From IMG/VR virus record IMGVR_UViG_3300022166_000001: a stretch of 63,164 nt of DNA; one strand, 5' to 3'. The notes under the pieces are model-generated. The model saw only the letters and a list, made by a program, of their open reading frames with translations. It was not told the DNA's origin and made no database searches. Below, in pieces: positions 23,175 through 63,164 of this stretch (position 1 is the stretch's first letter; every line of letters starts with the position of its first letter). Both the position numbers and the translations under genes were made by a program. The DNA comes from a virus.

Positions 23175-23250
23175 TGGTGAGTCATGACGGATTCAAACCG
23201 CCGACCAACGGTGTAGAAGACCGATGCTCTATTCACTGAGCTAATGACTC
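23175..23250 (-). tRNA. tRNA-Arg (anticodon TCT)
   Basis: Manual cloverleaf: acceptor GAGTCAT/ATGACTC, D arm GCTC/GAGC, anticodon loop CTTCTAC, T arm GGCGG-TTTGAAT-CCGTC, encoded CCA. Confidence 0.85.
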
Positions 23251-23257
23251 AGGTTAG

Positions 23258-23347
23258 TGGAGGAGACGGTGAGATTCGAACTCACGGTCGGGTTGCCCCA
23301 ACATCTGGGTTCAAGCCAGATACATTAAACCACTCTGACACGTCTCC
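23258..23347 (-). tRNA. tRNA-Ser (anticodon TGA), long variable arm
   Basis: Acceptor GGAGACG/CGTCTCC, anticodon stem TCTGG/CCAGA with loop CTTGAAC, 6-bp variable-arm stem, T arm GTGAG-TTCGAAT-CTCAC, CCA. Confidence 0.85.
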
Positions 23348-23352
23348 GTTAT

Positions 23353-23427
23353 TGGGCAGAACGATGGGTTACGCTCCCTATCTACCTGTTTCACAGACAG
23401 GTGTGCTACTATTACACTATCGACTGC
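23353..23427 (-). tRNA. Degenerate tRNA-like element with a His-type (GTG) anticodon arm; possible pseudo-tRNA
   Basis: Perfect anticodon arm CCTGT-CTGTGAA-ACAGG and D arm GTGT/GCAC. The acceptor pairs only 4 bp (GCAG/CTGC), and the T arm is aberrant (GAT-A-GGG / CCCATC with loop AGCGTAA). Confidence 0.3.
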
Positions 23428-23435
23428 ATTATTTT

Positions 23436-23514
23436 TGGCTCCGGATGTCGGAATCGAACCGACCTAACCATTGATTAACAGTCAAGCCCATGCACCTTGC
23501 TCGGGTTTTCCGGA
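23436..23514 (-). tRNA. tRNA-Asn (anticodon GTT)
   Basis: Acceptor TCCGGA/TCCGGA, T arm GTCGG-TTCGATT-CCGAC, anticodon loop CTGTTAA, long D loop, CCA. Confidence 0.6.
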
Positions 23515-23647
23515 ATAGTTGATGGCTTATCACCATCGAGAACTCAGTTACTATATACGTCTATATAGCTCACACGTAAATTCGTGATTAGGTCTTCACC
23601 AGCTTAGGTACCCGTTAAGGTGTGGGAGCGGAGTTTCTACTGATATA

Positions 23648-23723
23648 TGGAAGCGAGTGGTTGGAATCGAACCAACTATCTGCAGCTTATGAGGCTGCTG
23701 AGATACCATTTCTCCACACCGCT
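23648..23723 (-). tRNA. tRNA-Met/Ile2-type (anticodon CAT)
   Basis: D arm GAGA/TCTC, anticodon arm GCAGC-CTCATAA-GCTGC, T arm GTTGG-TTCGATT-CCAAC, CCA. The acceptor stem needs one bulged T. Confidence 0.6.
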
Positions 23724-23732
23724 ATAAATTGT

Positions 23733-30612: not shown

Positions 30613-30780
30613 TTAGTTCCAGTCTCGTTCTTCACGAAGCTCACGTAGGAAATTTCTGCGGTCACTTGCTTGACGTTGGGTTTGTTTCTTTTCTTTGAAT
30701 TTGTTTTTGAATTCATCCTTTAATGAGACCTCATCCTCATACTGGACATTCTTGATTGGTGGTTTAAATTTCTTACTCAT
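30613..30780 (-). CDS. Small basic hypothetical protein (the longest ORF extends to 30822)
   Basis: ATG 30780 overlaps the upstream stop by 8 nt. Lys/Arg-rich. Confidence 0.4.
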   Translation of the reverse strand: MSKKFKPPIKNVQYEDEVSLKDEFKNKFKEKKQTQRQASDRRNFLRELREERDWN

Positions 30781-31423
30781 TTTCTTTACGTTTAGCCCAA
30801 GATGCTTTTTGAGCTGCAGCAATAGCAGCCTTATGCGCTTCAGTTTTAGTTTTCCCTTTACCTGCTGCAGACATTTTTGCTTTTACAGTATCAGGGATGA
30901 CTTTTCCTTTAGCTGATTCAGACATTTTAGCTCTTACTTCAGGCCGTTTAGAGCTGTTATTGTCGCCTCGTTGCCACTCACTCATTTTACGGCGAGTTTC
31001 TTCTGAGAGTTGTTCTTTAGCAATGAACTTAATATTACCAATAGCTTGGTTGATGTAGGTACGTTCACCTTTATCATCAACAGCATGCAATACTCTTGCC
31101 GCCCATTGCAGTTCTACTTCAGCTGATACTACACCAGCGCGTGTATCAAACAATTCTACAATTTCAAATGTGAAGTATTCAAGACCATATTTTTTAATAG
31201 CTTCTTTGACATATACAGACGATGTTTTATAGGTATTCCAATCAGATTCTTTTTGCTTAGTTTTCTTACCGAAGTTGGTATAGAAAAACTTACGACCAAT
31301 GTACTTCTTTTGGTATTCAGGATGAGTACAAGTAACTAAGTATACAAAACCGAACTTATTATTCGGTGTCTGGAATAGTTGACCCTGATACATCCAAGGT
31401 GTTAGTGGTTTCTTTGTTGCCAT
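30773..31423 (-). CDS. GIY-YIG homing endonuclease with NUMOD3-like repeats
   Basis: FGFVYLVTCTHPEYQKKYIGRK, plus C-terminal repeats SEETRRKMSEWQRG, PEVRAKMSESAKG and DTVKAKMSAAGKG. Confidence 0.7.
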   Translation of the reverse strand: MATKKPLTPWMYQGQLFQTPNNKFGFVYLVTCTHPEYQKKYIGRKFFYTNFGKKTKQKESDWNTYKTSSVYVKEAIKKYGLEYFTFEIVELFDTRAGVVSAEVELQWAARVLHAVDDKGERTYINQAIGNIKFIAKEQLSEETRRKMSEWQRGDNNSSKRPEVRAKMSESAKGKVIPDTVKAKMSAAGKGKTKTEAHKAAIAAAQKASWAKRKENE

Positions 31424-34644: not shown

Positions 34645-34822
34645 TGATCTTCTTCCATGTTACGTTAGGAGAGCCTAACTCGGTTAATTCCGTAGCCATT
34701 TGCATGGTAAGTTCCTCATAGCTTTCAATAGTTTCTTCTAGTTCACTATTAAGATATTGTAGGTATACGATATAGAATAGTGAAATGAGAAGGAGAATGT
34801 TGGTTCCACCCTCTGTGAGCAT
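34631..34822 (-). CDS. Small membrane protein, 63 aa
   Basis: Hydrophobic N-terminus (NILLLISLFYIVYL). Confidence 0.45.
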   Translation of the reverse strand: MLTEGGTNILLLISLFYIVYLQYLNSELEETIESYEELTMQMATELTELGSPNVTWKKINEEG

Positions 34823-35307
34823 TAGTTTAATCCTGTTTTAGCTAACCAAGCAGGGTCAGCAAGACTGTTTTGAGGTGAGTTCTGGTTGATACCTACTCCC
34901 ATCTTACGAAGGAAGTCTACACCATCCATACACTTGTAGTTATCTCGGTATACTACTCGCTTAATTCCAACACTAAAAATAAGTTTAGCGCAATCAATGC
35001 AAGGACTGAGGGTGCAATACAGAGTAGCCCCAACAGTACTGCTATTTGAACGCGCCACCTTAGCGATGGCTTGAGCTTCAGCATGGAGTACAGTGTTTGT
35101 TTGAGTGTCGTTGTTAGTTTTTGGAGGTGTGCCATTATAAGAGAATGAAATAATGTTGTCGTCTTTAACGATTAATGCACCAACCTTACGGTCTTCTGCA
35201 TACGATTGTTGTGCGGTTACTTCAGCAACACGCAAGTAGAATTCATCCCAGTCACGTTGACTTTTCATCTTGGTCCTTACACAGGTTGATATAAGCTTTT
35301 TGAACAT
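34822..35307 (-). CDS. dCMP deaminase (a likely shorter start is ATG 35268)
   Basis: HAEAQAI and PCIDCAKLI zinc-binding motifs. Confidence 0.85.
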   Translation of the reverse strand: MFKKLISTCVRTKMKSQRDWDEFYLRVAEVTAQQSYAEDRKVGALIVKDDNIISFSYNGTPPKTNNDTQTNTVLHAEAQAIAKVARSNSSTVGATLYCTLSPCIDCAKLIFSVGIKRVVYRDNYKCMDGVDFLRKMGVGINQNSPQNSLADPAWLAKTGLN

Positions 35308-37345: not shown

Positions 37346-37951
37346 TTACTTTCCTGTTAGGTTGTGTGACATATTATAGTATAGATGACTCTTCTTAGCT
37401 TGGAGTGTGATCAAAAGTTGAGTCTCTAATTCCAACATCTCCTGATCAGTACCATAGGCTAAGATTGTACGGATGAATCTTGAGGGGCATTCATTGTACT
37501 CTGCGATAAGGCTTTCACTGCTGCAGACATATCCATCATCAGCTGTTCCCTTGTGCTTTCCGATATACTTTCTATCGGTGTCCTTGCAAATCCACAAGTA
37601 CACAAATGACTCACCGCTATTGCTGTAGGCGTTAGTCTCGGCAGGGACTTCGACATTGTATTCTCCCTTGATATGGTCTTGCCATATTTCTTTCACATAA
37701 GCAACCATAGGTTTACCCTTAGGTGCTCGCCACATTACTACGAATGAAGGACTACCTTCGTTTTCACAGAGATGTTCATAGACCCATTTGTTATGGAGTC
37801 CTGTATACTCAGTGTCACCGATAGTAACCTTCACCATAGACTTACCTGAGTCAGAGGTATACTCTTCAACTTCATCTACGGTACATTCGTAGATATCAAA
37901 GAGTTTATCACTACCTGCGACCCATCGTTTGACAGTCTTGATTAAGTTCAT
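37346..37951 (-). CDS. Protein with a C-terminal GIY-YIG-like nuclease domain
   Basis: FVYLWICKDTDRKYIGKHKG...DGYVCSSE...LELETQLL...YYNMSHN. Confidence 0.5.
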   Translation of the reverse strand: MNLIKTVKRWVAGSDKLFDIYECTVDEVEEYTSDSGKSMVKVTIGDTEYTGLHNKWVYEHLCENEGSPSFVVMWRAPKGKPMVAYVKEIWQDHIKGEYNVEVPAETNAYSNSGESFVYLWICKDTDRKYIGKHKGTADDGYVCSSESLIAEYNECPSRFIRTILAYGTDQEMLELETQLLITLQAKKSHLYYNMSHNLTGK

Positions 37952-38351: not shown

Positions 38352-38903
38352 CTAGTCGCATTTTAATTTACAGTTGTCTAAGTGCCACCGTTTCATATTT
38401 AAAAGGTCTCCTTCTTTATTACAGTGTGGACATTTAATTTTTGATTTACGCATGTCAGTATTGACATTGTTATTTGTTGTTAATTTAACTCTAGAGATTC
38501 CTGTAGCAATGGAAGCTTCTCTTAGAGATTTGTATTCTATACCATTAACTGTAATTGGTTTAGCTGTTGCATATATAGTTGGATCTCTACCCTCTAGTAC
38601 GGCTTTTACTATACGTTTATAAGATAATCCTAGAGCCTTTTGAGCTGCAGCTATTGATTCGTATTCAATATTATTTACTGTAATTGATTTTGAAGTCACT
38701 AGTTTGCTAGCTAATATTCTAGCTTCTTGGTTAGATATACTACCTTCTAGACATTTCCATGCAATATAGTCTTGGGGTTTACCGTAAATTTCGTATAGTT
38801 TTTTATGAGCTAATGCGTGTTCTTCTACAGTTATGGGTGCTGTTAAATTCCATTCATCATTTGTACCACCCATGTGTTTTGGGATTATATGGTGACGGTG
38901 CAT
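38352..38903 (-). CDS. HNH homing endonuclease with repeated DNA-binding modules
   Basis: HRHHIIPKHMGGTNDEWNL...HALAHKK, plus two repeats: ITVNNIEYESIAAAQKALGLS and ITVNGIEYKSLREASIATGIS. Confidence 0.8.
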   Translation of the reverse strand: MHRHHIIPKHMGGTNDEWNLTAPITVEEHALAHKKLYEIYGKPQDYIAWKCLEGSISNQEARILASKLVTSKSITVNNIEYESIAAAQKALGLSYKRIVKAVLEGRDPTIYATAKPITVNGIEYKSLREASIATGISRVKLTTNNNVNTDMRKSKIKCPHCNKEGDLLNMKRWHLDNCKLKCD

Positions 38904-38920
38904 AATATTCCTTTCTTATT

Positions 38921-38940
38921 TTCCTATTAGGCACCGGCTA
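38921..38940 (-). promoter_or_regulatory. Phage promoter-like motif P5 (TAGCCGGTGCCTAATAGGAA on the minus strand)
   Basis: 18/20 match. Intergenic, 17 nt upstream of the HNH gene start. Confidence 0.55.
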
Positions 38941-38946
38941 AAAGGA

Positions 38947-39637: not shown

Positions 39638-40045
39638 TCATAGATACTCCGCAATGATAGTGTCGCATGCTTTATCGACAGTTGAACGCCATTCAGTGAC
39701 AAGGGATTCAAAGAATGGATGGATAATAGAAGCATCAGCTTTGAATGCTACTACGGGTTTGCGTAGAACATACGAAGCATAGAATACTTCCATAGCAGTA
39801 CCATGCTTGGCTACTGTTGGATTATCAAGGTTGACAAGGATGATATCAGATTCTTGAATGTCTCGTAGATCTAACTCGAAGATACGCTTCATGTAGCGTT
39901 GTTCGAAGTTATGTACTCGGCGGGTAGGGTCTAATGTTAGTACATCATTTTGGTTTAGTTGCCATGATGCAATGTCACGCCAACCTTTAGCGGCTTCAGC
40001 TGATACATGCTCCATTGGACCTGCGAGATACACGGTTCTTTTCAT
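39638..40045 (-). CDS. Nucleoside 2-deoxyribosyltransferase-like protein
   Basis: The VYLAGPME N-terminal motif and size (135 aa) are typical of the family. Confidence 0.6.
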   Translation of the reverse strand: MKRTVYLAGPMEHVSAEAAKGWRDIASWQLNQNDVLTLDPTRRVHNFEQRYMKRIFELDLRDIQESDIILVNLDNPTVAKHGTAMEVFYASYVLRKPVVAFKADASIIHPFFESLVTEWRSTVDKACDTIIAEYL

Positions 40046-40190: not shown

Positions 40191-41084
40191 TTAGAATACC
40201 TCTAGTTTAAGTTCTTTAACTTTTTGAGTACACAGATTGTTTAATGTTCTGAAGTCAATCTTAGGATTTTTAAAGTCTTTAAGGATGTTCCACATTTCTT
40301 CAGTGATTAGATCATGGTACACAGTTGTCAACAAACGAGGGATGTACTTAGAAGACCAACCATCCATCTCATTTGTGATTTTAGCATGGACTTTATCAAC
40401 AAGGTGTTTATCAACGAACTTGCTAATGATTTTATCTTCAATGATTTCACCACCTACTAATGGAGCGCCCATCTCTTTGTGATGACTTTCTTTGAAAGCA
40501 TTAGTGATTAGCTTAGCCCATGTTTGACGACCATACTTATTTTCGTAAGCATAGTTCTTGATAACAATACCTTCGCCATTACCTTTACCGTCATCAATCA
40601 AGAAGAAGTTACGGCTGAGACATTCTTGGTATGTTTCATAGTTACCGTTCTTGATGATAGCGATAGGTGCAATGTAGTCTACAAGTGCAGCATCCAAGAT
40701 GTCTTTGTATTTATCATAGTGGATGTACTTTTCAGAACTACGATCATACACATCGAAGATATAGAATTTACGCCATGCATCATCACGATAGGTTTTAAGG
40801 CTATGTGGTACAAGCCATTCACCATAGAACACTAGATGAGGGTGTGCTTTAGTAAGCTCGATATGTGCTTGACTGATAGACATTGCATGGTAGAAACCTG
40901 CGTTGTCAGCTTCAAGTGTTAGGTGACGATTACGACTACCTGCTTGAATACAGTCATTTTGATACCAGATACTACCGTTAGTACCGTCAATTTTAGGAAA
41001 TACATATGATGTACCTACTTCGATACCGTCAGTTTCATCAGTGTGAAGCTTTTCAAGGTGTTGGTATTTGATGAATTCAGTCAT
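40191..41084 (-). CDS. RNA ligase (nucleotidyltransferase KxDG family)
   Basis: YVFPKIDGTNGSIW adenylation motif. The architecture is unlike the DNA ligase at 36218. Confidence 0.65.
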   Translation of the reverse strand: MTEFIKYQHLEKLHTDETDGIEVGTSYVFPKIDGTNGSIWYQNDCIQAGSRNRHLTLEADNAGFYHAMSISQAHIELTKAHPHLVFYGEWLVPHSLKTYRDDAWRKFYIFDVYDRSSEKYIHYDKYKDILDAALVDYIAPIAIIKNGNYETYQECLSRNFFLIDDGKGNGEGIVIKNYAYENKYGRQTWAKLITNAFKESHHKEMGAPLVGGEIIEDKIISKFVDKHLVDKVHAKITNEMDGWSSKYIPRLLTTVYHDLITEEMWNILKDFKNPKIDFRTLNNLCTQKVKELKLEVF

Positions 41085-50081: not shown

Positions 50082-50249
50082 TTACTCTCCTTTGAGGTTG
50101 TAGTAATCAATGGTTTGTTGCAATGCGATCTCTTCGGCTTGGTCACGATGCATGTTAGCTTGGTACTCTAAAATACCAGCACGTTCTTCAAAGAACTCTC
50201 TTTGGACTTCATTCAAGGCTGATACCTTGATTTGGATCATTAACGACAT
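50082..50249 (-). CDS. Hypothetical early protein (the longest ORF extends to 50294)
   Basis: ATG 50249 is preceded by GAGGAG. Confidence 0.5.
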   Translation of the reverse strand: MSLMIQIKVSALNEVQREFFEERAGILEYQANMHRDQAEEIALQQTIDYYNLKGE

Positions 50250-50425
50250 ACGATCTCCTCTGCTTCGGTTAGTAAGATGAATAGTTGTGCACAAGCAGTG
50301 ACACCACTAAAGAACAAGACACCAACCAACAAGAGGTCATAGCCTTGTTGCTCAAGAGCGATCATAGCGTAGTGTACACAGTTAGCCCAGAACAATAGCA
50401 CTGAGCCGTGGATGAGGTATTTCAT
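50240..50425 (-). CDS. Small membrane protein (the longest ORF extends to 50467)
   Basis: ATG 50425 is preceded by GGAGAC. Two hydrophobic segments. Confidence 0.5.
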   Translation of the reverse strand: MKYLIHGSVLLFWANCVHYAMIALEQQGYDLLLVGVLFFSGVTACAQLFILLTEAEEIVCR

Positions 50426-50493
50426 GTTGGTCTCCTTAGAACATGACAGAGCAAGAGCGCTCTCCACAGGGCATAACCCTGTAGGCAGGACTC

Positions 50494-50865
50494 TTAGGCA
50501 ACAACGAGATCCTCAGCAGCCATGACCTCGTCGATCAAAGCAACGACAGCAACAGTACGACCACCAGACCAGATGGTAGAGACCAGCTCCTTGAGCAACA
50601 GGTACTGAGCAAGAGGAACATCACCAGCATGACCGTGAGCAGACGGCTCAGCCAACGCCCACAGGAACACCTTCAGGTCAGCAGCATAGCGATCACGGTC
50701 CTCAGCACGGAGAGGACACAGGTCAGACGACCAGTGCTCAACACGCCAACCACTGGAAGACGAGCGACACAAGCGGTGGTTGGACAGGCGAACAAACCAC
50801 ATACCAACACGGAACAAAGAACCAGTCAACACAGACCAAGAGCGGAACAAGACACGAGCAAACAT
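50494..50865 (-). CDS. First early gene candidate, 123 aa (upstream in-frame starts exist, up to GTG 51168)
   Basis: GGAGG lies 5 nt before ATG 50865. The C-terminal 100 aa look like ordinary protein sequence, while the N-terminal extension lies in the adenine-free tract. Confidence 0.45.
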   Translation of the reverse strand: MFARVLFRSWSVLTGSLFRVGMWFVRLSNHRLCRSSSSGWRVEHWSSDLCPLRAEDRDRYAADLKVFLWALAEPSAHGHAGDVPLAQYLLLKELVSTIWSGGRTVAVVALIDEVMAAEDLVVA

Positions 50866-51168
50866 AGGAACCTCCAAAGAAAGAAAGAAAGAGAACAGGT
50901 CAAGCAGCCCAGAGAGCCACAAGAGAACCACACAAACAGAACGAGTACACAGCACCAACCCAAAGAGGAAGGACAGACCACACGACACCCGCCACAACAG
51001 CGAGCAAACAGAAGCAGCAACCAACAGTGAGAAGAGAAAGAAGAGCAGACACAGGACACCTCCAAGAGAGAACAGAGACAAGGGACGACACGCCCGAGCA
51101 ACCACCACGACAGCCCAAGCAAAAGCAGGGGGGGACACGGAAGGAAGCACAAGGGCGAACCAACACAC
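50803..51168. other. Three-letter tract: only 7 T in 366 nt of the plus strand
   Basis: Manual count. The T positions are 50826, 50865, 50873, 50900, 50946, 51028 and 51061. Confidence 0.95.
50900..51052 (-). CDS. Speculative 50-aa hydrophobic peptide encoded almost without adenine
   Basis: GGAGG (51063-51059), a 6-nt spacer, GTG 51052, and TGA at 50902-50900. It may be an artefact of composition. Confidence 0.2.
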   Translation of the reverse strand: MSALLSLLTVGCCFCLLAVVAGVVWSVLPLWVGAVYSFCLCGSLVALWAA

Positions 51169-51350
51169 TTTAATCCTTTTTCACACACAAAGAAACTTTA
51201 CCCCACAGACTTCCTCCCACAGACACTCCCCAGAAAACTTCACTTTCCGATTCTTTCTGAAGAGTGGTAGGGGTACCCAAAAATTATAGTATATTTTCTC
51301 CCAAGAAAATAATAATAAATATTACTATGGGCTTTTATAAACGAAAGTAT

Positions 51351-51370
51351 TAGTCGGTTCCTATTAGGAA
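51351..51370 (+). promoter_or_regulatory. Phage promoter-like motif P9 (TAGTCGGTTCCTATTAGGAA)
   Basis: 18/20 match, 24 nt upstream of the terminase ATG. It heads the whole late arm. Confidence 0.6.
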
Positions 51371-51394
51371 AATCTATTTAATATAGGACACATA

Positions 51395-53026
51395 ATGAAC
51401 AACCATAAAAAGCTAGAGGCTTTAAGGGAATTAAAAAGACGGGAAAAGATTAAAGAATATACAGGTAACTTTGAGACATTCGCCAAAGAACAAATCCGTA
51501 TTCTCCCGAAAGATTCCCGAGAGGGGTTCCAACCTTTTGTCTTTAACGAGGCACAACATATTGTAAATGATGCTATTGAAAAACAGTTGAAAGAAACTGG
51601 TAAAGTAAGAGCTATCATTTTAAAAGCGAGACAGATGGGGTTATCGACCTATTCTGCGAGTAGAGTATTTTGGAAATCATATTTCAATAAGTATAACAAG
51701 TCTGTTGTTATGGCGCATGATAGTGCTACTTCGGATGCTTTGTTTACGATGTCAAGAAATATTATTTCCCACATGACGGATGAGTTCCGTCCAGAATTAA
51801 AGAAGTCTAACGCCAAAGAGATTATGTTTGAACATAATGAGAGTGGATATAGGCTATATACTGCGGGTTCTCCTGAAGCGGGTCGAGGTATTACACCTAC
51901 GATTGCTCACCTTTCAGAGGTAGCTTTCTGGCTTCACGATGAGAAGATCTTAGCGGGTTTATTTCAGGGTATTTCACAGGCTGACGGTACCGAGGTTATC
52001 CTTGAGAGTACAGCTAACGGCGTAGGTAATTCTTTCCATAGATTATGGAAGGGTGCCGTAGAAGGTACCAACGAGTATATCCCTATTTTCGTACCATGGT
52101 TTTTGATGACGGAATATAGACGGGCTGCGCCAGAAGGTTTTGAAAGAACTCCTGAAGAAGAGCTTCTTGTTACAAGATTTAATCTTGATAATGATCAGTT
52201 ATATTGGAGAAGATTAAAGGTAGCTGAGGGTGGGTTGGATAAGTTCCGACAAGAGTACCCTAGCACACCTGATGAAGCATTTATTGTTTCAGGTAGTAAT
52301 GTATTTAATGTAGAGAAGTTATCAGCTCTTGTTCCTCAACCTATACTTGCTCAGATGGACTTTAACTTTGAGTCTCAAATGATGGAGCAGGTAAAGAATG
52401 GATCGATTGAAATTTTTAAGTATCCTACTTTTGAAGATTCTTTTGCTATTGGGGCTGATGTTAGTCTCGGGGTTGGGAAGGACTATTCCACGGCGATAGT
52501 GATGAATGCAAAAAGAGAAGTATGTGCAGTATATAGAAATAATACTATTGACCCATCCCAGTTTGGCGATCTATTGTTCTACCTTGGCAGGTATTATAAT
52601 AATGCTTTATTGGCTGTAGAATCTAACAGTATGGGTATTGCTACTCTAAATAGGCTAACTCAAATGGGTTATGTCAATATGTACTTCCAAACGAAGATGG
52701 CTAACGTGAGTAAAGAAGAAGGCACCCGTATTGGGTGGAGAACCACAATGGCTTCTAAACCAGCCATTATTGGATTCTTGAAGAATGCTATCGAGCAGGA
52801 AGACATTTGGATTCCTTCCCGAATTGTTATTGGGGAGTTGATGAATTATGTTGCTGACGATAACGGACGCACTAACGCTATTGTCGGTCATAATGACGAT
52901 ACTGTTATTGCTCTTGCGATTGCGCTCGAAGTGATCCGTACTCACGGAGATAGACTAACAACCAACAAGGTATCCTTCACACAGAAGATAGGATCCTTTG
53001 AACCGGATAATACAAAATGGCTATAG
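51395..53026 (+). CDS. terL: Terminase large subunit
   Basis: 543 aa, first gene of the late arm. The ILKARQMGLSTY ATPase-region motif and the C-terminal nuclease-length region are typical of N4-type TerL. Confidence 0.8.
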   Translation: MNNHKKLEALRELKRREKIKEYTGNFETFAKEQIRILPKDSREGFQPFVFNEAQHIVNDAIEKQLKETGKVRAIILKARQMGLSTYSASRVFWKSYFNKYNKSVVMAHDSATSDALFTMSRNIISHMTDEFRPELKKSNAKEIMFEHNESGYRLYTAGSPEAGRGITPTIAHLSEVAFWLHDEKILAGLFQGISQADGTEVILESTANGVGNSFHRLWKGAVEGTNEYIPIFVPWFLMTEYRRAAPEGFERTPEEELLVTRFNLDNDQLYWRRLKVAEGGLDKFRQEYPSTPDEAFIVSGSNVFNVEKLSALVPQPILAQMDFNFESQMMEQVKNGSIEIFKYPTFEDSFAIGADVSLGVGKDYSTAIVMNAKREVCAVYRNNTIDPSQFGDLLFYLGRYYNNALLAVESNSMGIATLNRLTQMGYVNMYFQTKMANVSKEEGTRIGWRTTMASKPAIIGFLKNAIEQEDIWIPSRIVIGELMNYVADDNGRTNAIVGHNDDTVIALAIALEVIRTHGDRLTTNKVSFTQKIGSFEPDNTKWL

Positions 53027-56207: not shown

Positions 56208-57344
56208 ATGAATTTATCACATCTCTCTACCAACACCCCTGCTTCAGAAATAAGCAGTGCGAGTTTTGATGACGGAAGTGTAAGTGCAGATTTGGAAGCA
56301 AAAAGTCTTGATGACATTCTACGTAATAGCCCTGCAGCAGAATTGCTCGGGTTAAAAGAATCTCTACCAGAAGAAGACGAAAGCGTCCCAAATCCAGATG
56401 AAGAGTCGGAAGAAGAACAAGCCCAAGAGAACGACTCGGAAGCTGAAAATGACCTAGATGAAAATGAAGAATCAGAAGAATCTGAGGAAGAGAATACTGT
56501 TGAGGATGACAAGTCTACCCAAGATACAGAGCTACCAACTGAAGAGGATATTGATTGGGAATACAAAGTACCCGTCACTGTTGATGGTAAAACTGAGTAT
56601 GTTACCCTAGAGGAAATCCGTAAGGGTTACTCTACTGATAAGCATCTATCTCAAAAAGGGCGCGAACTCGGCGAGCTGAAGAAGCAGATCGAGACTGAAA
56701 GAAATGAAAAGCTACAAGAAGTACTAACACTAGCTACGGTAATCAATGAAGAATTGACTGCCACTGAAACTAAGTTTGCTAATGAGTATCACAAAATCAA
56801 AGCCAATATCGATAAGGCTCGTGAAGAAGGTGACTCATATACAGCACGAGAACTTAAAGAGCAGCTAGAGGAAGCACAAGAAAAGTATTGGAACGCACGA
56901 AATAAACGTGAGGCTAATGCAAATCAAGTAGCAGAACAGCTAAAAGCGAATCAAGAAGCACAGCAACAAGCGTTACTGAAAGCGTATGAGGAAAATATTA
57001 CGAAAGTAATTCCCGATTATTCAGATAAAGTTGCTAAATCTATTCGTGAGTTTGCTGTTAAAGAAGGTCTACCTGAGACTATTCTTGATGTAATTTATGA
57101 TGTTAACATTGTAAAGTTCATTAATGATTATCGCAAGTTAAAGACTGCCAAGGAAACTGGTGAAGCAAAGCGTAAAGCAGCCCCAAGCGTTAAGTCGGTA
57201 CCCACGAAAAATGGAACACCTGCTGCGAAGAAGGTTCAACAAGCTGTAACTGAAAACCGTTCTAAGGTTCTTTCTGGTCAAGGATCAAAACAAGACGAAT
57301 TAGATTTTCTAAAACGTATTTCTTCTGTGAGCAAAAAACTATAA
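56208..57344 (+). CDS. Scaffolding protein candidate
   Basis: Very acidic N-terminal region (EESEEEQAQENDSEAEND...), then a long charged coiled-coil. Immediately upstream of the capsid gene. Confidence 0.6.
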   Translation: MNLSHLSTNTPASEISSASFDDGSVSADLEAKSLDDILRNSPAAELLGLKESLPEEDESVPNPDEESEEEQAQENDSEAENDLDENEESEESEEENTVEDDKSTQDTELPTEEDIDWEYKVPVTVDGKTEYVTLEEIRKGYSTDKHLSQKGRELGELKKQIETERNEKLQEVLTLATVINEELTATETKFANEYHKIKANIDKAREEGDSYTARELKEQLEEAQEKYWNARNKREANANQVAEQLKANQEAQQQALLKAYEENITKVIPDYSDKVAKSIREFAVKEGLPETILDVIYDVNIVKFINDYRKLKTAKETGEAKRKAAPSVKSVPTKNGTPAAKKVQQAVTENRSKVLSGQGSKQDELDFLKRISSVSKKL

Positions 57345-57374
57345 AACCAAATTTCACTTTAAGGAAATAATAAA

Positions 57375-58490
57375 ATGTCTGCAACAAACTTTGCAACTGG
57401 CGGTCCTAAGGCCGCAGCCCGTAGCGCATCTGCTACTGGTAACGCTGTCAACTCTGGTGAACGCGAGGACTTGGCTAACTTCATCTCTATGATTAGCCGT
57501 GACGAAACCCCTTTCTTGTCTTCAATCGGCAAGACTAAGGCTACTGCTGTTTTCCACGAATGGCAAACTGACGAATTGGCTGCTCCTACTTCTGCTGCTG
57601 TTGCTGAAGGCGTATCATACGCTACTCAGAACGCTGCTCAAGGCGCAGAACCTTTCCGTACTCGTTTGGGCAACTACACCCAGATCAACTCTAAGACTGT
57701 TACCGTAACTGGTACTAAGCGTGCTGTTGATCAAGCTGGTGTTGCTGACGAATACGCATACCAACTCAAGAAGCGTGGTACTGAATTGCGCCGTGACGTA
57801 GAGTTCGACTTGGTCAACTCATGGAACAGCTCAAACGGTTCTGGCACTCGTAAGTTTGGTGGCTACCAAGCTTGGGTCAACTACACTGCTGCTACAACTA
57901 CTCCTGCAACAGCATTGAACGTATTGACTACTGGCGCTGAGTACACTGCACCTACCAACATGGGTGGTGGTCAAGCTGGTACTTTCACTACTGTTACTAG
58001 CTCTGATAAGAACAGCTTACAGTTGTCACACGTTGACACCGTAATGCAAGCTATCTATGAGAACGGTGGTAAAGCTACTAAGTTGATGTTGTCTCCTGCT
58101 AACCGCCGTGTATTCAGTGCTAAGGCACAGTCTGCTGGTTCTAGCACAAGCAACGCTGGTGACGGTAACGTTCGCCGTAACATCGATGCTGATGGTAAAC
58201 TCCGTCAGTCAGTCGAGATCTACATGTCTGACTTCGGCGACATCATGGTTGTTCCTAACTACGTAATGGGTATTTCTAATACCAGCGTATCAGGTCTTGA
58301 CCAAGCCGCTAACTTCAGCGCATTCTTGTACGACCCAATGTGGTTCAGCTACGCTTCTCTACGTCCTCTACAAGAAGTTGACCTCGGTCAGCTTGGTGAC
58401 TCTATCATCGGTCAAATCGTTGAAGAGGGTACCTTGGAGTGCCGTAATCCAAAAGGCGCTGGCTTGATCTTCGGTTTGTCAGGTGCTTAA
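57375..58490 (+). CDS. Major capsid protein
   Basis: REDLANFISMISRDETPFLSSIGKTKATAVFHEWQTDEL resembles a capsid N-terminal signature. It shows the strongest codon bias in the genome and is followed by a hairpin terminator. Confidence 0.75.
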   Translation: MSATNFATGGPKAAARSASATGNAVNSGEREDLANFISMISRDETPFLSSIGKTKATAVFHEWQTDELAAPTSAAVAEGVSYATQNAAQGAEPFRTRLGNYTQINSKTVTVTGTKRAVDQAGVADEYAYQLKKRGTELRRDVEFDLVNSWNSSNGSGTRKFGGYQAWVNYTAATTTPATALNVLTTGAEYTAPTNMGGGQAGTFTTVTSSDKNSLQLSHVDTVMQAIYENGGKATKLMLSPANRRVFSAKAQSAGSSTSNAGDGNVRRNIDADGKLRQSVEIYMSDFGDIMVVPNYVMGISNTSVSGLDQAANFSAFLYDPMWFSYASLRPLQEVDLGQLGDSIIGQIVEEGTLECRNPKGAGLIFGLSGA

Positions 58491-60110: not shown

Positions 60111-61628
60111 ATGGCATACGAACAAAAACCGGGTATGACCGGAAATATCTCAGGTGGTGGTGAGTATGATGACTTAGACACGGTCAATTCCCATAACTAC
60201 TTTATTTTAGGTGCTGAAGATGCTGCTGCTGCAGCTCTTAGCGCCGCCGCTGCATTAGCTTCTCAAAATGCTGCTCATGCATCTGAAGTAGCTGCTTTGG
60301 CTTCTCAAAATGCTGCTGCAACGTCAGAGGCTAACGCGCTATCTTATAAAAATTCAGCTTCAGCAAGCGCTACTGCAGCTGCTACATCAGCAACCAACAG
60401 TGCTAATAGTGCTTCTGCCTCAGCTACGTCAGCAACTAGCTCAGCTAACAGTGCTACAACAGCAACCACACAGGCTGGTATTGCAACAACTCAAGCAGGT
60501 ATTGCCACTACACAGGCTACTAATGCTACTGCCTCTGCAACTGCTGCTGCAGCTACTCTTGCGGCTGTTCAAACCGTATTTGATAACTTTGATGATATCT
60601 ATTTAGGTGCTAAGAATAGTGATCCAACAGTAGATAATGACGGTAACCCTCTTGTTGCAGGTCAAATGTACTGGAATACACCTGTACAAGAGATTCGTTT
60701 TTATAACGGTTCTGTATGGGAACGCCCAGAATACGCTGCTTCACAATCGGCTATCGCAGCTAATAATAGCGCAACAGCTGCGGCAACATCTGCAACTAAT
60801 GCTGCTGCAAGTGCAACTAGCGCTTCAGGATTTGCAACGACAGCAACTACTCAAGCGGCAAATGCAAGTACTTCTGCAACAAGTGCTTCTACTAGTGCGA
60901 CTACTGCTACAACCCAAGCAGGTATTGCTACTACACAGGCTACTAATGCAGCAACATCCGCAACTAACTCTGCAGCTTCGGCTACATCAGCTGCTTCAAG
61001 CGCATCTACTGCAACAACTCAAGCAACTAATGCTTCTGCAAGCGCCGCTAGTGCAGCCACATCAGCAACTAACGCTTACAACTACTCTACATCAGCAACA
61101 ACTACTGTACGCAACGAGTCAGGCGCAACATACCTAGCTGGTACTGTTATTTTACTAAACGGTAACTCAGGTAATAAACCTTTAGCTGTTAAAGCTCAGG
61201 CAAACAGCGAAGCAACTTCTTCAGGTACCTTTGGTGTTATCCGCTATGATTTAACAACTAATACTAACGGTGACGCTGTTACAGGCGGTCTTGTAGCAGG
61301 TTTAGATACATCAGCATACACAGCCGGACAAGTCTTATGGCTATCTCCAACAACAGCTGGTGGATACACAACTACAAAACCAGTTGCGCCTAATCACGCA
61401 GTTAAAGTAGGTGTAGTACAACGTTCACACGCTAATCAAGGTGAAATCATTGTATCGATTGCTAATGGTTACGAACTAGAAGAACTACATAACGTACTTA
61501 TTACTTCAGTAGCAGACAAGAACATCATTGCATACGACTCAGCAACAAGCTTATACAAAAACATTGACGGTACAACTATCTATGATGCTGCGGGTGTAGG
61601 TGTCGCAATGGCGATTGCTTTAGGTTGA
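60111..61628 (+). CDS. Tail fibre with two Ala/Ser/Thr-rich repeat blocks
   Basis: Repeats of SATNSANSASASATSA and TTQAGIATTQATNA flank a conserved-looking DDIYLGAKNSDPTVDNDGNPLVAGQMYWNT motif. Confidence 0.65.
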   Translation: MAYEQKPGMTGNISGGGEYDDLDTVNSHNYFILGAEDAAAAALSAAAALASQNAAHASEVAALASQNAAATSEANALSYKNSASASATAAATSATNSANSASASATSATSSANSATTATTQAGIATTQAGIATTQATNATASATAAAATLAAVQTVFDNFDDIYLGAKNSDPTVDNDGNPLVAGQMYWNTPVQEIRFYNGSVWERPEYAASQSAIAANNSATAAATSATNAAASATSASGFATTATTQAANASTSATSASTSATTATTQAGIATTQATNAATSATNSAASATSAASSASTATTQATNASASAASAATSATNAYNYSTSATTTVRNESGATYLAGTVILLNGNSGNKPLAVKAQANSEATSSGTFGVIRYDLTTNTNGDAVTGGLVAGLDTSAYTAGQVLWLSPTTAGGYTTTKPVAPNHAVKVGVVQRSHANQGEIIVSIANGYELEELHNVLITSVADKNIIAYDSATSLYKNIDGTTIYDAAGVGVAMAIALG

Positions 61629-62971: not shown

Positions 62972-63164
62972 ATGACAAATTACACAATCACACTCTCTAC
63001 TGCAGAAGACTCTGCACTCTCTTACGCAGCTCTTTCACAAGACGACTGGATTCAAAACGCAGTACATGAACGCTGCCGAGTAGCTATCGATGAAATCGTT
63101 CAGATCACAGTAGCAAAATGCTTAGAGACTTCTACACAGATTCCAGGTTCAAAAGAGGAAATGG
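62972..63164 (+). CDS. 5' part of the wrap-around CDS that ends at 221
   Basis: AAGGA RBS and ATG 62972. The frame stays open to the window end and into copy 1 of the overlap. Confidence 0.6.
   Translation, partial: MTNYTITLSTAEDSALSYAALSQDDWIQNAVHERCRVAIDEIVQITVAKCLETSTQIPGSKEEM
63042..63164. repeat. Terminal redundancy, copy 2 (identical to 1-123)
   Basis: Same evidence as for copy 1. Confidence 0.95.

Follow-up and report, generated by a model that had tools for sequence, protein, structure and literature searches.

A nearly adenine-free tract at the head of the early gene arm in a phage related to Roseobacter phage CRP-7

The DNA analyzed here (the window) is the complete 63,164-nt stretch of IMG/VR record IMGVR_UViG_3300022166_000001, assembled as a circle whose ends overlap by 123 nt. 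Its layout resembles that of the cultured Roseobacter phage CRP-7: two divergent arms, with a T7-like RNA polymerase gene at the distal end of the early, minus-strand arm. The terminase large subunit gene (51395-53026, plus strand, assigned by homology) is the first gene of the late arm, and its product is 58.5% identical to the CRP-7 terminase over 98% of its length. Homology of terminase, portal and capsid, together with the two-arm architecture, places the phage among the CRP-7-type podoviruses. The cumulative GC skew of the genome has its minimum at the locus between the arms.

An earlier note, made from the sequence alone, had correctly put the tract described below where the two gene arms diverge, and had compared this place with the physical left end of N4-like genomes. 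The comparison is not supported. The sole RNA polymerase is a 733-aa T7-type enzyme of the early arm (PF00940, E 3e-56); the giant virion RNA polymerase (about 3500 aa) and the gene order of N4-type phages are missing, and the three large virion proteins (1001-1264 aa) gave no polymerase match. The terminase matches Terminase_6N/6C, the T4-like (headful) Pfam type. Contigs of relatives break at arbitrary places, a few of them 9-30 nt before the terminase ATG and not at one position. Given a T4-like terminase and arbitrary contig ends, no terminus can be placed at the tract. The single-subunit RNA polymerase is shared with T7-like phages (Autographiviridae), but their gene order, all on one strand with the terminase at its far end, is not: there are two divergent arms here, and the terminase gene adjoins the putative early promoter region.

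Reading along the minus strand, the early arm is preceded by a TATAAT hexamer (51288-51283, resembling a -10 element) followed by the palindrome GGGTACCC; both lie within 51271-51288 and are conserved in close relatives. They form a candidate early promoter and start region, and a consensus promoter scan did not call the TATAAT. Downstream lies a leader (51169-51276) which contains A, is poor in C, and carries GGGG runs, a repeated GTCTGTGGG and a CUUU-GUGUGUG-AAAG hairpin. Leader C averages 10% in the family against a background of 19.7%; in the window alone the corresponding G-poor score is not exceptional. Over its approximately 100 nt the leader is about 25-30% A, these A's being kept upstream of the first start codon. 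Consensus folding of the leader gave only a 5-bp hairpin, without covariation. On the terminase side, just upstream of that gene (51350-51372, plus strand), there is a conserved 23-nt motif, TTAGTCGGTTCCTATTAGGAAAA, with a palindromic core. It is invariant in relatives and has a second copy at 38919-38941 on the minus strand (two matches were obtained in 0 of 100 shuffles). The motif could serve as an operator or as a promoter for the phage polymerase.

The leader ends at AAGGA-n5-GTG (51178-51166, minus strand), which supplies a leader ORF, orfL, with its Shine-Dalgarno box and start and marks the exact 5′ edge of the zone considered below. Relatives carry AAGGATTAAAATG at this position. As a conserved gene orfL was rejected: its length varies from 2 to 263 aa among relatives and its end is not conserved, which leaves at most a leader peptide. 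Next come a GGAGG box (51063-51059) with orfA (GTG 51052 to TGA 50900; 50900-51063 including the box), coding for 50 aa with 2 A in 150 nt, and a second GGAGG box (50875-50871) with orfB (ATG 50865 to TAA 50494; 50494-50875), coding for a conserved 123-aa protein. All these boxes, starts and the orfA stop were positioned as the earlier note had them. At 50446-50495, still on the minus strand, folding predicts a boundary element composed of an 8-bp hairpin and GAGAGCGCTCTTGCTCTGT, with a long interrupted stem, ahead of the Shine-Dalgarno box of the next gene. The element is present in a single copy in the window, and no promoter was recognised in it. The gene that follows (50240-50425, minus strand) codes for a small membrane protein and is the first early gene of normal composition, 14 of its 61 third codon positions (about 20%) being A. 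From the sequence we infer both the nature of the hairpins and the start of transcription.

The tract as first described (50803-51168) was said to contain 7 T in 366 nt of the plus strand, and a recount gave the same number: 7 T, at 50826, 50865, 50873, 50900, 50946, 51028 and 51061, next to 166 A, 104 C and 89 G. On the early-sense (minus) strand these are 7 A. In a sliding-window analysis no base fell below this count in any stretch of 366 nt across the whole 63-kb sequence. The minima for the other bases were 64 (A), 40 (C) and 40 (G), and T averaged 111.6 per window with a standard deviation of 18.1. The maximal T-poor segment, 50703-51168 (466 nt, 15 T), had a segment score of 316, against a maximum of 41 in 20 shuffles and of 36 in the remaining window.

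The purge extends beyond the tract as first described, with A missing at all third codon positions of the 123-aa ORF, down to 50494. In orfB, A occurs 12, 23 and 0 times at codon positions 1, 2 and 3, and none of the 123 codons ends in A. The full adenine-purged zone begins with the first start codon downstream of the leader and ends with the orfB stop (50494-51168, minus strand), with 6% A overall and 1% at third codon positions. The A's that remain are found only where they are needed: in the GGAGG boxes, in ATG, in stops, and at the first or second codon position of D, E, Y and K. The observation that the residual A's of the tract fall in translation signals was well founded. Synonymous sites and spacers have been emptied of A, and the zone proteins are shifted toward the ten amino acids that have A-free codons. 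The zone ends sharply at the conserved hairpin element; relaxation follows, with A rising from 0.23 to 0.35 across about 1.25 kb past the zone, and this is family-wide and seen in CRP-7 too. The A-less strand is always the sense strand.

The statement that all six frames are open in the tract was incorrect. Four stops were found, TGA 51028-51030 and TAG 50865-50867 on the plus strand and TGA 50902-50900 and TGA 50828-50826 on the minus strand, and each strand has only one fully open frame. The RNA structure of the tract was ordinary (z = -0.34), no second copy was present in the window, and a promoter and terminator scan gave no signal beyond shuffles. Chi sites and T7-type primase sites (GTC) were not enriched in 38 zones, an Rfam search returned tRNAs only, and a distant blastn search with the region found no match among 50,697 phage records.

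Comparison among relatives shows that the genes of the zone are real and under purifying selection. Homologues of orfA, 49-51 aa long, were found in six related loci (L003, L005, L006, L008, L027, L031) after an identical GGAGGTGTYCYGTG; dN/dS is 0.15-0.56 and the differences are concentrated at third codon positions. The 50-aa candidate peptide proposed earlier is therefore a genuine conserved gene, and its product is apparently a two-helix hydrophobic membrane peptide. The 123-aa ORF likewise proved to be a genuine protein family, of 13 clusters. An AlphaFold model of the orfB product had a mean pLDDT of 74. A fold search against PDB and BFVD gave no significant match, the best, to the C-terminal domain of ribosomal L11, having an E of about 0.1, and no match was obtained in Pfam, PHROG or PADLOC; PADLOC matched none of the zone proteins. 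Relatives carry other A-purged cassettes, such as orfC, a family of 33 clusters, none of them annotated. The median dN/dS of orfC is 0.31, its differences at codon positions 1, 2 and 3 number 2579, 1721 and 4535, and A occupies these positions 22, 129 and 21 times in 1766 codons. The products of orfB and orfC appear to be soluble.

As accessory genes, those of the zone are absent in L007, and in both L007 and L009 the small membrane protein gene stands directly after an 87-nt A-less core. Where the leader ORF is broken, in L012 and L080, A's are back in its 5′ part. On the gene calls given here, the tract is the 5′ translated-gene module of the early (minus-strand) operon: orfL, orfA and orfB. 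For most of the tract, a purely non-coding interpretation is wrong.

Within the zone, the motif best conserved across the family is a poly-C run (51128-51134, minus strand; poly-G on the plus strand), with CCCCCT present in 37 of 38 non-redundant zones. Over 600 nt the window agrees base for base with five further assemblies of this phage, obtained from JGI, Logan and ENA samples, apart from the length of this run: the window has 7 C's, the others 8, 8, 8, 9 and 9. With seven C's the frame is continuous with orfB in a 224-aa fusion, with eight it leads into the orfA frame, and with nine it ends at 50826. The run is thus at least 7 long, in frame and of varying length, as in a homopolymer contingency locus, and the variation could be assembly noise. 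In most relatives the C run is a stable 5-6. A membrane extension of roughly 100 aa on the 123-aa protein, suggested earlier, did not survive this comparison: the fusion frame needs a run of 7, and in the other assemblies, with 8 or 9, the frame is shifted.

Reproduction of the feature in these five independent assemblies, and in relatives, shows that the tract is not an assembly error. Related IMG/VR loci were gathered with the terminase large subunit as anchor; in all 69 for which upstream flank is available there is a T-poor tract, 68-905 nt long, and between its end and the terminase gene downstream lie 97-336 nt. In CRP-7 the early arm opens with approximately 750 nt that contain about 17 A. 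The comparison with related genomes thus bore the observation out. Among the genomes scanned, the feature was missing in CRP-6, CRP-4 and MW202692. The family that has it consists of marine and freshwater CRP-7-type phages. The boundary element stands at the zone end in relatives regardless of zone length, sometimes in two copies, and early-gene cassettes are exchanged among relatives by recombination, not hypermutated in place.

The patterns at synonymous sites speak for graded selection against A in the sense strand and against an A-to-G mutation bias. The proportion of A at third codon positions of orfB homologues is 0%, 6-10% or 23%, tracking the number of upstream boundary elements, so that the purge is set by position and not by the gene. 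In partly purged copies, 4-fold sites contain 3-7% A and have T instead, and 2-fold purine sites are still 37-57% A; in the full zone 91% of the 2-fold purine sites are G. The zone also bears signatures at the level of RNA or translation: it keeps conserved Shine-Dalgarno boxes and starts, the anti-Shine-Dalgarno sequence CCTCC has an observed/expected ratio of 0.41, U-runs of at least 4 are depleted, and AT dinucleotides are avoided outside ATG.

Strand-specific mutation pressure, by single-strand exposure at an origin or terminus or by a DGR-like adenine-specific RNA-templated process, would look superficially alike in its swept synonymous sites and protein drift; the position of the GC skew minimum and the leader G-runs, which resemble primer-forming sites, also fit it. 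We nevertheless regard it as very improbable. No reverse transcriptase domain was found in the early-arm ORFs scanned and there is no template repeat, C is not depleted, which argues against deamination, and the boundary at the hairpin is sharp with cassettes moving by recombination; moreover, partly purged genes have T in place of A at their 4-fold sites but still have A at 2-fold purine sites. It is more improbable still, indeed scarcely credible, that the plus strand is the coding one, for a highly charged disordered protein comparable to CRP7_gp72. Long plus-strand ORFs are present, including one of 169 aa at 50780-51289, and one is annotated for CRP-7 in GenBank, but such ORFs exist solely because stop codons need T; they have no family matches, and codon phase and dN/dS put the coding on the minus strand. 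Alternatively, a slippery poly-C run ahead of a stop-free tract might make translation frame-agnostic: slippage in replication or transcription would put ribosomes into any of the three frames with no early stop and so give alternative hydrophobic products or fusions. The conservation of the C run, its varying length (7, 8 or 9) in six assemblies that agree elsewhere and the different outcomes of these lengths would agree with such a device. Against it, the runs of most relatives are stable at 5-6, the length differences are possibly assembly noise, and orfA, orfB and orfC are each preceded by a separate Shine-Dalgarno box, with purifying selection in a single frame. Furthermore, given an A, stop trinucleotides make up about 30% where about 26% is expected; stops are as common as they should be and are not the specific target of the purge. 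We consider this explanation improbable.

The strongest of the alternatives, unlikely as it is, concerns restriction: the DNA exposed first would be free of A/T palindromes and Type I sites, and the first genes, possibly anti-defence ones, would be expressed before the rest was at risk. The tract has 2.7 4-mer palindromes per kb against 51.9 elsewhere, and no 6-mer palindromes against 12.6 per kb; this near-absence follows from the composition by construction. Among the palindromes that the composition still permits, GGCC (0.27), CCGG (0.23), CGCG (0.31), CCTGG (0.12) and CGTCG (0.13) are depleted in the 38 zones. Site avoidance is clearly used by the phage genome-wide, and the position at the early-arm head with stepwise relaxation would suit staged DNA entry. 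However, GC-only and W-centred palindromes are about equally avoided genome-wide and not specifically in the zone. GATC (three times), CATG and TCGA, all removable by synonymous change, are retained in orfB, the palindrome GGGTACCC is conserved in the leader 100 nt upstream of the zone, and the promoter region is full of A/T palindromes. In addition, the headful type of terminase and the circular assemblies with arbitrary ends leave a fixed leading end unproven, and the gain per site from removing each A would be small. Protection of the template strand is rather less likely than this. A T-less template would be unaffected by thymine lesions or modifications, and opposed nicks with their double-strand breaks would be avoided; the candidate agents are UV dimers, DarT-type ADP-ribosylation and a glycosylase acting on modified T or U. 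Strand specificity and selection on every nucleotide would be accounted for, these phages live in sunlit surface waters, the source of CRP-7, and genes for a CDA-fold deaminase and for a deoxyribosyltransferase-like protein are present with no thymidylate synthase detected, which makes an unusual thymidine metabolism possible. Yet the leader, also transcribed, has about 25-30 template T per 100 nt, sense GG (template CC) is barely avoided (0.83-0.86), the zone genes are accessory to the point of being missing in L007, and no obvious DNA-hypermodification genes or other sign of DNA modification were found. A membrane zip code, in which U-rich, A-poor RNA would bring the early message and the transcribing DNA to the inner membrane, has a precedent in the U-rich membrane-protein mRNAs of bacteria, and orfA, the leader ORF and the next gene specify hydrophobic membrane peptides. 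Adenine-poor signal-sequence coding regions of vertebrates are a further precedent (a paper of this kind is PMC2100147). The idea seems to us a poor candidate: orfB and orfC, whose products look soluble, are purged equally, G is up as well as U, and no known signal of this type needs zero A. Least convincing in this group is transcription independent of ATP, an idea of the earlier note, by which the early polymerase would cross the zone when ATP is scarce. The zone indeed needs no ATP, by construction, but the leader, every later gene and translation do, the core of short-zone relatives measures only 68-90 nt, and ATP is normally the most abundant NTP.

Our best guess, with a probability of about 0.3, is protection at the RNA level of the first-expressed message from A-dependent attack. 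Selection would act on the early RNA, and through the nucleotide itself. An A-free message would be immune to agents that need adenine, such as MazF-, ToxN- and HEPN-type ribonucleases or RNA adenine modifiers, and the first proteins of infection would be made whichever such agent was active. Hairpins would split the transcript into segments, exposure and strength of selection dropping stepwise from one to the next. It is established for ACA-less mRNAs and MazF that removal of a toxin's target motif makes an mRNA immune, and the zone shows one feature of toxin-motif-free mRNA: avoidance in the sense strand at synonymous sites with the protein conserved. The dependence of the purge on position, its gradient, the constant orientation, the A's kept in the leader and those that return in a broken leader ORF are further points in favour of this reading. 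The phage also carries an RNA ligase and four tRNA genes, which in other phages answer RNA-damaging defences.

Protection of the message has evidence against it as well. No A-dependent RNase or modifier was identified in the phage or its host, and the A content of the 5′ leader means that the transcript is not wholly A-free. Complete exclusion of A goes far beyond the need of any single known nuclease. RNase-E-type GNUUU motifs are not depleted, no particular A-containing motif shows a gradient, and the AT observed/expected ratio is flat outside the zone. CRP-6 shares its host strain with CRP-7 and lacks the tract, so that a host-imposed pressure would not be universal. The short A-less cores of 68-88 nt may be non-coding, and these are not obviously explained by protection of a coding message.

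Known systems resemble the zone in part. ACA-less, MazF-resistant mRNAs are alike in that a toxin target is removed, the protein is kept and sense-strand synonymous sites are constrained. They differ in avoiding one trinucleotide, whereas here a whole nucleotide is avoided over up to 900 nt, several genes and their spacers; the protein alphabet shrinks, and no toxin is known for this phage. The first-step-transfer region of T5 and the leading end of T7, with ocr as first gene, would be counterparts as promoter-proximal early segments nearly without restriction-type sites, ahead of a staged exposure of the remaining genome. There, DNA of ordinary composition lacks particular sites and the physical leading end is known, while here the terminase is T4-like and A/T palindromes persist in orfB and the leader. 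The adenine-poor signal-sequence regions of vertebrates and the U-rich membrane-protein mRNAs of bacteria would share 5′ hydrophobic coding, a depletion of A greater than the protein calls for and a signal at the RNA level; these tracts are tens of nt long, depleted rather than emptied, and do not extend across genes of soluble proteins or spacers. The PeSL cassettes of T4-like phages are similar in being small early ORFs behind conserved stem-loop or translation-start modules, mosaic among close relatives, and dissimilar in having no compositional exclusion; no promoter was recognised in the boundary element here. Skews caused by single-strand exposure, as in the heavy strand of vertebrate mitochondria or associated with transcription in T7, have a G/T-rich sense or displaced strand and a gradient in common with the zone. 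Those skews are mild products of C-to-T and A-to-G mutation. In the zone C is unaffected and T is the main replacement for A, with an abrupt boundary and with site classes that indicate selection. In the literature searched, including the CRP-7 genome paper, we found no description of several translated genes from which one nucleotide is all but excluded, and the feature appears to be unreported.

A broader statement, slightly easier to accept than message protection alone and still tentative, is that CRP-7-type phages write their immediate-early genes in a U, G, C alphabet. This would make message or template invisible, independently of any particular target, to adenine- or thymine-recognising factors and would imply an undescribed conflict in the first minute of infection, with ten-amino-acid proteins as a product and the poly-C run possibly exploiting the open frames. 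The data also flag a systematic annotation error, in which spurious opposite-strand ORFs such as CRP7_gp72 are called and the real genes are not. The question lends itself to direct experiment, since both CRP-7 and its Roseobacter hosts have been cultured. The exclusion, apparently upheld by selection throughout the phage family, implies that something early in infection penalises each A of the message, or each T of the template, and that the penalty is strong enough to reshape proteins, giving natural proteins built almost wholly from ten amino acids. Identification of the agent could bring to light a further level of conflict between phage and host, or a rule of early gene expression not recognised before.

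The tract at 50803-51168, which the earlier note had described as nearly devoid of T on the plus strand (i.e. of A on the minus, early-sense strand), does contain only 7 T in 366 nt (A 166, C 104, G 89). Analysis of the 63-kb sequence in sliding windows of 366 nt gave a mean of 111.6 T (s.d. 18.1), and the minimum for A, C or G did not fall below 40 in any of them. The maximal-segment score for T-poverty was 316, at 50703-51168 (466 nt, 15 T), compared with at most 41 in shuffled sequences and 36 in the remaining part of the window. All the translation signals listed in the note were found. Its statement that all six frames are open was incorrect: four stop codons are present, two per strand, and only one frame per strand is fully open. 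The 123-aa protein encoded at the tract edge is encoded, unchanged in sequence, by 11 contigs that come from separate JGI, Logan and ENA samples, and five of these, aligned with the window, were identical to it over about 600 positions except for the length of a poly-C run. A misassembly or chimera, considered in the note, can be dismissed because the tract is reproduced in independent assemblies and in relatives.

As judged from its sequence, most of the tract codes for protein on the minus strand. The gene for the 123-aa protein, orfB, runs from ATG 50865 to TAA 50494 (123 codons), with A at codon positions 1, 2 and 3 in 12, 23 and 0 codons; third-position A in other genes of the phage amounts to 22-45%. 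All 35 A residues of orfB shun one phase, which fixes the reading frame and indicates that A is tolerated only where the amino acid demands it. Its family comprises 13 protein clusters (121-128 aa), in which many residues are invariant. The candidate 50-aa peptide, orfA (GTG 51052 to TGA 50900, minus strand, GGAGG upstream), appears to consist of two hydrophobic helices, and its proposal in the note gained support from homologues of 49-51 aa in relatives, with dN/dS of 0.15-0.56 and differences mostly at third positions. It was left uncalled by gene callers. A third gene, orfC (117-212 aa), is carried as a cassette by relatives, including the cultured Roseobacter phage CRP-7. Its median dN/dS is 0.31 (105 pairs), differences at codon positions 1, 2 and 3 number 2579, 1721 and 4535, and A is found at these positions in 22, 129 and 21 of 1766 codons. 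Residual A's in 38 non-redundant zones lie mainly in GAG, GAC, TAC, AAG, ATG, stop codons and GGAGG. The ORF starting at GTG 51168 varies from 2 to 263 aa across relatives and is at best a leader peptide.

The note had suggested looking for a comparable skew in relatives. Using the terminase gene adjoining the tract as an anchor, we collected 80 IMG/VR loci, and a T-poor tract of 68-905 nt was present in 69 out of 69 with sufficient upstream sequence. Its composition is almost constant (A ~0.41, C ~0.29, G ~0.27) and it ends 97-336 nt upstream of the terminase start. In two loci (L007 and L009) the zone is an 87-nt core only, with the boundary element directly after it. CRP-7, the nearest cultured phage (terminase identity 58.5%), has about 17 A in a stretch of about 750 nt of the early-sense strand, immediately upstream of the first early gene. 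The feature is absent in the three other phages checked, CRP-6 (which has the same host strain as CRP-7), CRP-4 and one more distant relative, indicating that it is a property of this lineage and not of a host.

Long plus-strand ORFs were considered as genes and rejected, as they are open only because stop codons need T. One of them, CRP7_gp72, is a GenBank CDS for a hypothetical protein on the strand opposite to the early sense (57271-57966 of the CRP-7 record, 141-836 of our locus L001). It covers the CRP-7 tract on the T-free strand and is very probably a spurious call; the genuine A-purged gene of CRP-7, a 128-aa member of the orfC family, is encoded opposite to it and lacks GenBank annotation. 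Most of the contigs with zone genes are short, at 1-5 kb, and several with the terminase (among L002, L004, L023 and L071) end 9-30 nt short of its ATG. Assembly is prone to break off in this neighbourhood, and the reason may be strain variation, biased coverage or true DNA ends.

The window was assembled as a complete circle, with positions 1-123 perfectly repeating 63042-63164 (123 nt), which gives a genome of 63,041 bp; the break of the contig falls in an intergenic gap of the structural arm. There are two divergent gene arms, and the layout of CRP-7 is identical. The early (minus) arm runs from 51168 to about 22074, so that the tract is the first thing on it. Its genes for replication and nucleotide metabolism encode a primase-helicase, a family-A DNA polymerase, a 5'-3' exonuclease, a DNA ligase, an RNA ligase, ribonucleotide reductase and a CDA-fold deaminase, and a 733-aa T7-type RNA polymerase is encoded near its distal end. 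On the plus arm the terminase gene comes first, at 51395, and the others include those for portal, scaffold, capsid, tail and three very large virion proteins. By this layout and polymerase the phage is of CRP-7 type and not, as the note had assumed, N4-like. Four tRNA genes (Arg-TCT, Ser-TGA, Asn-GTT and Met-CAT; 23175-23724), all reading A-containing codons, cluster at the distal end of the early arm and, together with the RNA ligase gene (40191-41084), hint that tRNA/RNA damage is a theme of the biology of this phage. The 161-aa deaminase (34822-35307, minus) matches dCMP-deaminase, MafB19/TadA-like and dCTP-deaminase models, a nucleoside deoxyribosyltransferase-like gene is located at 39638-40045, and thymidylate synthase was not detected in the window; pyrimidine metabolism may thus be unusual. 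Homing-endonuclease-like genes (GIY-YIG SegE-type, NUMOD domains) are scattered through the replication module (30773-31423, 37346-37951 and 38352-38903, minus), and a tail-fibre-like gene (60111-61628) contains long degenerate 21/42-nt repeats at 60357-61073 (plus), rich in Ala, Ser and Thr codons.

Read in the early sense, the locus begins with an A/T-rich divergent control region containing TATAAT and a conserved GGGTACCC palindrome. A C-poor leader of about 100 nt follows, with A's, G-runs, repeated GTCTGTGGG motifs and a small CUUU-GUGUGUG-AAAG hairpin, and then AAGGA-n5-GTG, a conserved poly-C run and the A-free zone with its cassettes. The zone is closed by a conserved boundary element, a hairpin plus GAGAGCG(C)TCTTGCTCT that folds as a long interrupted stem, beyond which genes have ordinary composition. 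The GGGG runs and GTCTGTGGG repeats of the leader are clustered at 51200-51260 (minus) and at the equivalent place in relatives, and the leader of L077 has four tandem GGAATTTTAGTTTAA repeats. These resemble G-quadruplexes or iterons and could mark an origin or a site bound by a regulator. A conserved 23-nt motif, TTAGYCGGTKCCTAWTAGGAAAA, with the palindromic core TTCCTA-T-TAGGAA, is found upstream of the terminase gene (51350-51372, plus) and within the early arm (38919-38941, minus); it may be a phage-polymerase promoter or operator.

The poly-C run (51128-51134, minus) has a length of 7 in the window and 8, 8, 8, 9 and 9 in five assemblies otherwise identical over about 600 nt. The ORF from GTG 51168 reaches the run after about 11 codons, and every length puts this ORF in a different frame: C7 a 224-aa fusion with orfB, C8 the orfA frame with a stop at 50900, and C9 a stop at 50826. 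The membrane extension of the 123-aa protein suggested in the note needs a run of 7, so that as a fixed product the fusion loses support. The run may be a phase-variable or slippage site shifting the frame of this ORF, and slippage could possibly exploit the stop-poor tract.

The orfB family indicates that the purge, the removal of sense-strand A, is position-dependent. Third-position A is 0% in the window, upstream of the sole boundary element, 6-10% in L016, L031 and L034, where the gene is placed between two such elements, and 23% in L037, where it is downstream of two elements and another gene. Family-wide, the A fraction past the zone starts at 0.23 and rises for about 1.25 kb until it levels off at 0.35, a distance across which T and G drop and C is flat; CRP-7 has the same gradient. 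Fourfold sites are A 31, C 14, G 5 and T 50% in the background and A 0.4, C 13.5, G 18.6 and T 67.4% in the zone. In partly purged orfB copies A has already given way to T at fourfold sites and twofold purine sites keep 37-57% A; in the full zone the latter are 91% G. Such an order is expected from a gradient of selection, with A lost first where the substitute is cheap. A-to-G deamination bias would predict another pattern, and cytosine deamination is ruled out by the untouched C. In one pair of loci the terminases are 99.4% identical and the zones measure 663 and 200 nt; in another, with terminases 91% identical, the zones share 95% identity. Zone content is thus not coupled to terminase divergence, indicating that cassettes move by recombination and are not mutated in place. 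With neither a reverse transcriptase nor a second tract copy found in the window, mutation pressure is given a lower probability than a benefit at the RNA level.

That benefit is our tentative reading (probability about 0.3): an A-free immediate-early message would escape any adenine-requiring ribonuclease or RNA modifier, much as ACA-less mRNAs resist the toxin MazF. Several observations point towards RNA or translation. The A-less strand is always the sense strand; the A-free state starts at the first start codon, the leader retaining A's; and in relatives with a disrupted leader ORF A's return. CCTCC, the anti-Shine-Dalgarno pentamer, is rarer than expected (0.41), U-runs of at least 4 are depleted and AT is shunned outside ATG. 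The presence of RNA ligase and tRNA genes suggests that the phage has to contend with RNA damage. Restriction-proofing of the leading DNA is less probable: the possible three-letter palindromes (GGCC, CCGG, CGCG, CCTGG, CGTCG) are rare in the zone but about equally rare genome-wide, orfB has three GATC sites, GGGTACCC is conserved in the leader, and the terminase is of the T4-like Pfam type, with no fixed terminus inferable from contig ends of relatives. Many template T's in the leader likewise lower the probability that a T-free template strand is being protected from lesions. A frame-agnostic translation device driven by poly-C would fit the varying run length of the six assemblies; stable runs of 5-6 in most relatives make it less probable too. 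A membrane-targeting RNA signal and ATP-free transcription are also ranked below the RNA-level benefit, and about a quarter of the probability belongs to causes outside those listed. Chi, primase sites, RNase-E motifs, RNA structure and dinucleotide gradients gave no positive signal. Over the whole window (both strands) strongly avoided palindromes include CGWCG (O/E 0.04), CCWGG (0.23), GGCC (0.29), CGCG (0.33) and CTAG (0.51), which suggests heavy restriction pressure by particular host systems; GCWGC is about twofold over-represented.

No account of a tract of this kind turned up in full-text literature searches, and it goes unmentioned in the CRP-7 genome paper (PMC6918029). Motif-free toxin-resistant mRNAs, restriction-site-free first-entering DNA, adenine-poor signal-sequence coding regions and strand skews from single-strand exposure come near, but differ from the zone in kind or degree. 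At the level of sequence, the data establish a conserved, translated and recombining early-gene module from which sense-strand A has been removed by graded selection, with a hairpin element as its bound. As CRP-7 is in culture, the question is open to a decisive experiment.
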